From: Escherichia coli
Lineage (GTDB): Bacteria; Pseudomonadota; Gammaproteobacteria; Enterobacterales; Enterobacteriaceae
Length of the DNA: 43,800 nt
Direction: 5' to 3' (one strand)
Assembly (NCBI RefSeq): GCF_003334315.1
Contig: NZ_QOWR01000040.1
Part shown: positions 24,027-32,093 of the stretch, one piece after another
How the letters are laid out: the number at the start of each line of letters is the position of its first letter
Numbering within the stretch: position 1 is the first letter of the stretch
Notes under the pieces: generated by a model
The model's input: the letters and a program-made list of their open reading frames with translations, nothing else
What the model was told of the DNA's origin: nothing
Database searches by the model: none
Translations under genes and position numbers: made by a program

Positions 24027-24473
24027 TTATTTGCCTTCGTGCGCGTGCTCATCTTCGCGGCAATCGCCTTCGGCACAGTGACCGTAAAGATAGAGACTGT
24101 GGTTAGTCAGGCGAATGCCATGTTTTGCGGCAATTTCACGCTGACGCGCTTCGATGGAATCATCACTAAATTCGATAACCTTGCCGCAGTCGAGGCAGAT
24201 CAGGTGATCGTGGTGATGTTGCTGTGTCAGTTCAAATACGGATTTACCGCCTTCAAAATTGTGGCGGGTGACGATACCAGCGTCGTCAAACTGGTTCAGT
24301 ACGCGATATACCGTAGCCAGACCAATTTCTTCACCCATATCGATCAGACGTTTGTATAAATCTTCCGCACTGACGTGATGGTTGTCCGGCTCCTGAAGAA
24401 CTTCCAGGATTTTTAAACGAGGAAGCGTTACTTTCAGGCCAGCTTTCTTTAGGGCGGTATTGTTATCAGTCAT
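24027..24473 (-). CDS. fur: Ferric uptake regulator Fur (148 aa)
   Basis: N-terminus MTDNNTALKKAGLKVTLPRLKILEVL; metal-binding HHHDH and C-terminal Cys/His cluster. Confidence 0.95.
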   Translation of the reverse strand: MTDNNTALKKAGLKVTLPRLKILEVLQEPDNHHVSAEDLYKRLIDMGEEIGLATVYRVLNQFDDAGIVTRHNFEGGKSVFELTQQHHHDHLICLDCGKVIEFSDDSIEARQREIAAKHGIRLTNHSLYLYGHCAEGDCREDEHAHEGK

Positions 24474-24552
24474 GCGGAATCTGTCCTGTTACTAAGCGGT
24501 TCACTTCATTAGAAGAAGTGACAGAATTTGCTCTTGAGATAATGCGTATCAT
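24466..24552 (-). CDS. uof: uof, 28-codon upstream ORF translationally coupled to fur
   Basis: MIRIISRANSVTSSNEVNRLVTGQIPHD overlapping the fur start by 8 nt; matches the described uof. Confidence 0.7.
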   Translation of the reverse strand: MIRIISRANSVTSSNEVNRLVTGQIPHD

Positions 24553-24556
24553 TATA
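24538..24556. promoter_or_regulatory. Fur-box-like motif at the uof start
   Basis: GATAATGCGTATCATTATA matches roughly 15 of 19 positions of the consensus GATAATGATAATCATTATC; its position over the uof start makes a functional role uncertain. Confidence 0.3.
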
Positions 24557-24761
24557 GAATTGCCACGCCTAAATGAAAACCACAAGTCCCTGGCAAATAT
24601 TGTTAATAAAAACGTGGCATAGCTTACATTTACAACGGCAAGGCCACTTGAACACCGGGACATTGTACAGGTACAACAGCAAAAGTTACAAATTTGTAGC
24701 AATTATTTTGATTGGCATTATCTATTAATACGGCGTAGACATGAGTCTACGCCGCATCACA

Positions 24762-25292
24762 TCAGGCATTGAGAATTTCGTCGAGATGCAACTCTTCAGA
24801 AATCTGTTTAACCCATTTTTCTACACGTTCAGCGGTCAGTTCCGGCTGACGGTCTTCGTCGATAGCCAGACCGACAAAGTGGTCGTCATCTGCCAGACCT
24901 TTTGATGCTTCGAAATGATAGCCCGCAGTTGGCCAGTGACCAACGATGGTTGCACCGCGCGGTTCAATGATGTCGCGGATGGTGCCCAATGCGTCGCAGA
25001 AATATTCGGCGTAATCTTCCTGGTCACCACAACCAAACAGCGCAACCAGTTTGCCATTGAAATCAATCTCTTCGAGAGTCGGGAAGAAGTCATCCCAGTC
25101 ACACTGCGCTTCGCCGTAATACCAGGTTGGGATGCCCAGCAGCAGAATGTCATAAGCTTCCAGATCTTCTTTGCTGCTTTTTGCAATGTCATGGACATCG
25201 GCAACGTCTTTACCAAGCTGTTTTTGAATCATTTTTGCGATATTTTCGGTATTACCGGTGTCGCTGCCGAAAAAGATGCCAGTGATAGCCAT
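24762..25292 (-). CDS. fldA: Flavodoxin 1 FldA (176 aa; six-frame ORF extends to 25409)
   Basis: N-terminus [16 protein letters not shown] (FMN-binding loop). Confidence 0.95.
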
Positions 25293-30773: not shown

Positions 30774-32093
30774 TTAACCGTGTTTATTTTTCAGTTCAAA
30801 GCGTGGTGATACCAGACCATACAGTGTCCAACCAAGGAAGGTCACGATGGAACCGTACAGCATGGCTTCTTCCCCGGATGAGTACAGCGCATAGAAACTG
30901 TACATCGCGCCAACAAAAGCAACAAAGTTTGCAACTTTCGCTTTTGAGGGGGGCACATTAGCGACCTTCTGAATAATGACTAATGCCGCCATTGACAGAA
31001 TATACGGAATGATATTGGTCACCACGGCCAGGTTAACCAGCACGTTGAACTGACTGTTTAGCGACGGGCTAATCGTCATCAGCGCCAACCCGCTCTGGAT
31101 AATCACAATGGTCAACATTCCCTGCACCGGTGCATCCACTTTGGTTACACGGGAGAAAATTTTAGGGAAGTAGCCTTCATCAGATGAAGATTTAAACACC
31201 TGGGCAATGGTGAACTGCCAGCCAAGTAGCGAACCGCAGCAGGACATCACCATCAGCGCCATAATGACTTTACCCACTTCCGGCGTGAACATCTGCGCGA
31301 AGGCCAGACCAAATGGTGCCGTTGAATTTGCCAGCTCCATATTTGGCACAATCCCGGCAATCACGTTGGTGGAGACGATATAAATCACCGCCGCACCTAA
31401 CGTACCGCCGAGTACCGCGATTGGCACATTACGTTCCGGGTTTTCCACTACATCAGTATTTGCACACGCAGACTCCAGACCAAGAAAAGCCCACAGCGTC
31501 ATAGCGATGGAAGAACCTACCGCACTGAAGAACGGTGCATGATGCGGATTCCAGGAATCAACGTACAGCGTCGGGCTAAACCAGAACCAGCCAATAATGC
31601 ACAGACCGACGACCGGAATAATGACCCCCCACACGGTAATGCTACTGATTTGCCCGGTAATGCGCGCACCACCAAAGTTAGCCACGGTACAAATCCACAG
31701 CACCCCGATGGTCGCAAGACCAATCTGCACTGGCGACAAACTCGCGCCGAGCAGTTCGGTGCCGTAACCAACCGCCGAAATAGCAATCGCGACGTTAGCA
31801 ATCAGCAGTGAGACGCCGTAGGTATAGTTCGCCATAAAGTTACCGGATTTACCGAAAGCATACTCGGCATAACCGCCCATACCGCCTGATTTACGGCTGA
31901 ACATACCGCATTTTGCGAATGCCCATGCCAGTGCCATTGAGCCTACGGCTGTCACCAGCCAGGAGATAATTGAGATTGTCCCGACTTCGGCAAGCTTTGT
32001 CGGCAGCATGATGATACCGGAGCCCATCATGTTGACCATCGTCAGTATGGTTAACTGAACGACGCCCATTTTGTTCGATTTAGCCTGACTCAT
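30774..32093 (-). CDS. potE: Putrescine/ornithine antiporter PotE (439 aa)
   Basis: APC-family multi-TM protein; 4-bp overlap with speF stop. Confidence 0.95.
   Translation of the reverse strand: MSQAKSNKMGVVQLTILTMVNMMGSGIIMLPTKLAEVGTISIISWLVTAVGSMALAWAFAKCGMFSRKSGGMGGYAEYAFGKSGNFMANYTYGVSLLIANVAIAISAVGYGTELLGASLSPVQIGLATIGVLWICTVANFGGARITGQISSITVWGVIIPVVGLCIIGWFWFSPTLYVDSWNPHHAPFFSAVGSSIAMTLWAFLGLESACANTDVVENPERNVPIAVLGGTLGAAVIYIVSTNVIAGIVPNMELANSTAPFGLAFAQMFTPEVGKVIMALMVMSCCGSLLGWQFTIAQVFKSSSDEGYFPKIFSRVTKVDAPVQGMLTIVIIQSGLALMTISPSLNSQFNVLVNLAVVTNIIPYILSMAALVIIQKVANVPPSKAKVANFVAFVGAMYSFYALYSSGEEAMLYGSIVTFLGWTLYGLVSPRFELKNKHG

Follow-up and report, generated by a model that had tools for sequence, protein, structure and literature searches.

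Known Fur operators and the control of fur

The closest described system is the operator of the Escherichia coli fur gene itself. Table 3 of Chen 2007, citing de Lorenzo 1988, lists a Fur DNase I footprint at fur (NC_000913.2, 709931–709960), and the model of that study gives the site 12.3 bits, which puts it among the weakest footprinted sites; among the Table 3 rows listed, only tonB (11.5) is lower. A 110-bp fragment of the fur promoter is the standard probe of Fontenot and Ding (JBC 2023), who name the Fur-box in it as 5'-TATAATGATACGCATTATC-3' and report a gel shift in which the fragment is moved by [2Fe-2S]-Fur and left unmoved by apo-Fur. The strong operators at promoters for iron uptake (fhuF, entC, fepB, sodA, cir, and ryhB) resemble the fur site in their 19-bp inverted-repeat architecture and in overlapping a core promoter. 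They are, however, extended multi-dimer arrays, whereas fur has a single short site; in the listed part of the Chen table, fepB, fepA-fes, cir, fhuF1, entC, and sodA lie at 16.7–23.3 bits, all above fur, and K-12 ChIP calls the strong operators while the signal at the fur site is weak or none.

Earlier literature speaks of a "moderate autoregulation" of fur. Published work places a Fur box over the −10 element of Pfur-a, the starts of fur transcription within the ORF of the leader peptide uof, Pfur itself "within the uof ORF", and a further promoter, Puof, upstream of uof; an RNA-seq study describes three promoters that feed ybfE-fldA-uof-fur. Control also takes place at the RNA level: in its published outline, RyhB blocks the initiation of uof translation, for which RyhB G44/C45 are required, and the overlap of the uof stop with the fur start is thought to couple translation in E. 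coli. As far as that outline goes, this control (Vecerek et al. 2007) shares with the Fur box the uof start codon, which lies inside it, but acts on RNA, and on transcripts initiated upstream. Outside E. coli, the fur promoter of Yersinia enterocolitica has a Fur box (TATAATGAGACGCAATTGA) at the homologous position, some 84 nt before fur and over a predicted −10, but with only ~58% identity to the consensus and without a uof ORF; the Serratia site resembles it.

The Fur box and its surroundings

The window (the whole stretch of 43.8 kb that was analyzed) is E. coli chromosome and includes the chiQ-fur-uof-fldA region. According to the RefSeq annotation, fur (24027–24473), uof (24466–24552), and fldA (24762–25292) all lie on the minus strand. 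As in K-12, uof encodes a fur leader peptide of 28 aa (MIRIISRANSVTSSNEVNRLVTGQIPHD); it starts with an ATG at 24550–24552, runs for 28 codons, and its stop overlaps the fur start. The fur-fldA stretch differs from that of MG1655 at 4 of 1266 positions. Of 5426 complete E. coli genomes, all but one (5425) match the 1.4 kb around the box at 95–100% identity; in 4698 of these 5425, identity reaches 99% or more over the 76 nt surrounding the box. One complete genome carries an extra fur-uof-fldA copy on a plasmid, giving 5427 chromosomal places and one on a plasmid.

The original prediction had marked 24466–24560, approximately the entire uof ORF plus 8 nt, as a Fur-box-like sequence covering the uof initiation codon. 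The motif proper takes up just the upstream 19 nt, at 24538–24556 (GATAATGCGTATCATTATA on the plus strand; TATAATGATACGCATTATC on the minus strand, in gene sense), and includes the ATG. In gene sense it agrees with the Fur consensus GATAATGATAATCATTATC at 16 of 19 positions, the remaining three being mismatches, and ATTATC, which forms its right half, is GATAAT perfectly inverted. No other site in the 43.8 kb has three or fewer mismatches to the consensus, with 0.01 such sites expected from dinucleotide shuffles.

Ten other E. coli Fur sites went into a symmetrised weight matrix: nine from footprinted regions of Chen 2007 Table 3, with sequences taken from NC_000913.3, and one from the ryhB promoter; the fur site itself was not among them. 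On this matrix the fur site scores 16.4 bits, the highest value in the window, with 0.075 equally good sites per shuffled window; it falls inside the leave-one-out range of the training sites (8.9–20.3 bits). Likeness to a Fur box and the position of the start codon within it came out as the original prediction had them. The second-best score in the window, 15.1 bits, belongs to GGTAATGCTACTGATTTGC at 31635–31653, within an ORF of 439 aa on the minus strand (30774–32093).

The 110-bp fragment used in the JBC 2023 gel shift is identical to 24464–24573 of the window. The published DNase I footprint maps to 24535–24564 and encloses the motif. For this mapping we used the position of fur in NC_000913.3 (710200–710646) and a shift of 777 nt from version.2 to version.3 coordinates. 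Further along the chromosome, an offset of 1977 was confirmed from the fhuF and yjjZ starts; the value of 777 nt at fur is the one we take to apply there. The sequence at 24538–24556 is an already-known Fur operator: the exact 19-mer has been published for the same locus, and there is no difference at the site. As the site through which the master iron regulator controls its own gene, it is textbook material and serves as a standard Fur probe, and the identification has little import beyond correct annotation.

Promoter geometry and transcripts

A consensus promoter scan found TTTTCA-17-TATAAT on the minus strand at 24579–24551, matching at 10 of 12 positions. Its −35 hexamer TTTTCA (24574–24579; promoter scan and conservation) is separated by a 17-nt spacer from the sigma-70 −10 hexamer TATAAT of Pfur (24551–24556; promoter scan, conservation, and literature). 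This TATAAT also forms the first six bases of the Fur box, which therefore sits at a classical promoter position and overlaps the core promoter. From the −10 we infer a Pfur start 6–8 nt past it, at 24543–24545 on the minus strand and downstream of the uof ATG, in agreement with the published placing of Pfur and both fur starts in the uof ORF. Counted in this way, the box spans roughly −12 to +7 of Pfur, the classical −10/+1 position of a repressor. The original prediction had placed the motif inside the fldA-uof-fur co-transcript rather than at a classical promoter position; the first half of this holds for the long transcripts, but the second does not.

We consider it probable, at roughly 85%, that the motif serves as a Fur operator over the −10 and start of Pfur, where holo-Fur contends with RNA polymerase in a weak negative autoregulation and the uof ATG is shared by overlap. 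The same 19 bp would then carry three signals, with bases 1–6 as the −10 of Pfur, bases 5–7 as the uof ATG (which shares the last two bases of the −10), and the entire 19-mer as a Fur box with two overlapping dimer sites, one of them good and the other weaker. Iron-loaded Fur bound there would compete with RNA polymerase for the −10 and start, and the resulting negative autoregulation of fur would be modest. Since the −10, the repressor site, and the start codon are found in one 19-bp stretch, a mutation aimed at one of them touches the others.

Transcripts from Pfur would begin a few bases past the uof ATG, so that an intact uof start is expected on the longer transcripts only, namely those that originate at Puof, fldA, or ybfE. 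On these, the control exerted by RyhB over uof translation would form a separate layer at the RNA level. A promoter-like TTGTAA-18-TACAAT on the minus strand at 24691–24662 (9 of 12 positions in the promoter scan) is a candidate for the published Puof. A terminator scan of the region after fldA called no canonical terminator. A hairpin that it left uncalled, GGCGTAGAC-tcat-GTCTACGCC at 24731–24754, starts 8 nt past the fldA stop and has no T-run, which fits partial read-through into uof-fur. Just past this hairpin there is a cluster of weak Fur-like 19-mers at 24689–24722 (in gene sense GATAATGCCAATCAAAATAATTGCTACAAATTTG), scoring 7.6, 9.95, and 8.55 bits on our matrix and spaced 9 and 6 nt apart. 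The cluster shares bases with TTGTAA, the −35 of the candidate Puof, and Klebsiella, Cedecea, and Siccibacter have parts of it (AAAATAATTGCT) at positions around −230 to −245.

Conservation across Enterobacterales

The search covered one genome per species and used a degenerate fur N-terminal pattern, so that no assumption was made about the sequence upstream. This returned 120 loci, of which the 116 with at least 200 nt upstream, from 44 genera, form the comparison set. A TATAAT lies 55–135 nt upstream of the fur ATG in 99 of the 116 loci (41 of 44 genera), and in 74 of these 99 it is preceded by TTTTCA at 17-nt spacing. In an anchored alignment, GGTTTTCATTT, followed after 17 nt by (G)TTCTATAATGAGACGCA, is nearly invariant over 39 genera.

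The TATAAT..GAGACGC core does not depend on a uof ORF. Pectobacterium, Dickeya, Brenneria, and Lonsdalea all retain it, with an additional T (TATAATTGAGACGC) that abolishes the ATG, and so do Serratia and Pantoea, whose ORF from the ATG is just 4 codons long. Across the set, a uof-type ORF with its stop overlapping the fur start occurs in 43 of the 116 loci. Conservation for the sake of the uof peptide was rejected as an explanation: the codons past the ATG differ between genera by non-synonymous changes (CATTATC, CATTACC, CATTCTC, CATTTAC), and the core is kept where the ORF is absent.

Likeness to a Fur box is distributed more narrowly. Only 27 of the 116 loci have four or fewer mismatches to the Fur consensus, and the others have 8–13, with 8 at the Serratia fur promoter site. 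The 27 come from Escherichia, Citrobacter, Salmonella, Enterobacter, Leclercia, Lelliottia, Phytobacter, and Pluralibacter, together with entries that are unnamed or unclassified within Enterobacteriaceae and Proteobacteria. The Fur-specific right half, CATTATC, is not conserved beyond the Escherichia/Citrobacter/Salmonella/Enterobacter group; the Enterobacter-type sequence is TATAATGAGACGCATTATC, and the Serratia/Pantoea type is TATAATGAGACGCAATTAA.

Read from the aligned sequences, this pattern is that of a promoter to which a Fur-box half and an ORF have apparently been added in some lineages, and not that of a translation-initiation region or an sRNA target. One could imagine that the locus is layered: an ancient core, GGTTTTCATTT-17-TATAATGAGACGCA, would be Enterobacterales-wide, while a single clade (Escherichia, Citrobacter, Salmonella, Enterobacter, Leclercia, and relatives) would have gained the CATTATC right half and, in some of its members, an ORF running from the ATG inside the −10 to the fur start. 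On this view both the autoregulation by Fur and the coupling through uof would be recent add-ons within the same 19 bp, and Fur could also gate read-through into uof as a roadblock. We regard this scenario as a whole as tentative and somewhat doubtful. We did not find such a layering described; the cross-genus picture is the sole mildly new material here.

The segment GGTTTTCATTT around the −35 of Pfur (24569–24582) is almost invariant in 39 genera, beyond what the −35 hexamer needs, and may also bind another factor. Reported sites for OxyR and OmpR lie in this region.

Occupancy, expression, and competing explanations

Published data on Fur in vivo are mixed. In strain KO11FL grown iron-replete, a ChIP-exo peak assigned to uof,fur at 4301615–4301627 adjoins the box, which is found there at 4301597–4301615. 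In the MG1655 Fur ChIP-exo list, the interval from 675011 to 756236, which includes fur, is free of peaks, and the NCM3722 Fur ChIP-seq table has none assigned to uof or fur; over nine strains, a Fur peak at uof/fur is called in one. The caution about occupancy in the original prediction therefore has some basis in MG1655 and NCM3722. Genome-wide ChIP in K-12 thus misses a classical footprinted site, and an absent peak does not exclude a weak operator. At the level of RNA, K-12 NCM3722 with iron shows a log2 change of −1.92 for uof in Fur+ versus Fur− cells (q = 2e-8), i.e. a 3.8-fold rise in the fur mutant, alongside a 1.4-fold rise of fldA (log2 −0.51). RyhB is derepressed in this mutant and is expected to push uof RNA the opposite way. 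A plasmid-borne EcPfur::lacZ fusion gave no iron response in the wild type. Together, these data point to a weak operator and fit the "moderate autoregulation" of the earlier literature.

The missing K-12 peaks and the iron-insensitive lacZ fusion could also mean that the region is in essence a promoter −10 and start whose Fur-box likeness matters little, if at all, in K-12 in vivo, Fur binding only in vitro at high protein. Conservation lends this some weight, as what is deeply conserved is TATAATGAGACGCA with the −35, the Fur-specific right half is limited to one clade, and TATAAT by itself already supplies five of the six bases of the GATAAT hexamer. A match at 16 of 19 positions, however, goes well beyond what a −10 provides, and the right side is a perfectly inverted GATAAT. 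The KO11FL peak, the published footprint and gel shift, and the rise of uof RNA in the fur mutant despite RyhB derepression speak for binding with an effect, and we judge an account by the promoter only to be unlikely. The rise of uof RNA could instead come from Fur acting as a roadblock to RNA polymerase arriving from Puof, fldA, or ybfE, so that it lowers the long uof transcripts rather than occluding Pfur; the box does lie inside the read-through transcripts, and the increase in the mutant is larger for uof than for fldA. Simple occlusion of Pfur would nevertheless fit these RNA data, since Pfur transcripts include part of uof as well, and the weak occupancy in vivo makes an efficient roadblock unlikely, which leaves this explanation very improbable. 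Occlusion of Pfur by Fur bound to its −10 and start remains the preferred reading.

RyhB and translation of uof

The original prediction had offered, as an alternative to a Fur site, that the motif reflects the AT-rich uof translation-initiation region targeted by RyhB. A windowed duplex scan was run with the RyhB core (nt 31–62 of the K-12 sequence), and candidates that include G44/C45 were taken. The best duplexes lie at 24519–24533 (uof codons 7–11, −12.1 kcal/mol) and 24556–24571 (just upstream of the ATG, −11.0 kcal/mol), and flank the Fur box instead of covering it. Pairing of RyhB to the motif above chance was not found in this low-power test, in which the candidates were no better than shuffled leaders (mean −15.0 kcal/mol, SD 2.2), so that RyhB pairing cannot be placed computationally. 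The PETcofold paper likewise describes the published RyhB-uof model as not computationally predictable. Prediction with the whole RyhB molecule was discarded, as it returned long-range duplexes that are meaningless. An Rfam scan of 24300–24900 gave nothing relevant and one spurious snoRNA match (E = 0.17).

Although the uof ATG lies within the motif and a RyhB block of uof translation initiation is published, the notion that the motif is a RyhB target with incidental Fur-box similarity is contradicted by the footprint and the gel shift with the 19-mer, which document Fur binding to the box DNA, by the core being kept in genera with no ATG or a 4-codon ORF, and by duplexes on either side of the box that do no better than shuffles, and we give it next to no credence. 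Nothing suggests that RyhB pairing explains the DNA motif, which the uof/RyhB mechanism leaves unexplained since it is kept where uof is absent.

The junction between uof and fur varies among species. In Salmonella enterica arizonae, Klebsiella indica, and Citrobacter amalonaticus, the ORF ends after 16–17 codons, with its stop ~28–30 nt short of the fur ATG; the overlap of uof stop and fur start is therefore not universal, even in close relatives that keep the Fur box. In Enterobacter sp. R1, Buttiauxella noackiae, and Cedecea colo, the ATG of TATAATG opens a frame that continues into fur without a stop, giving ORFs of 172–173 codons; going by these reading frames, long transcripts in the three species could yield an N-terminally extended Fur.
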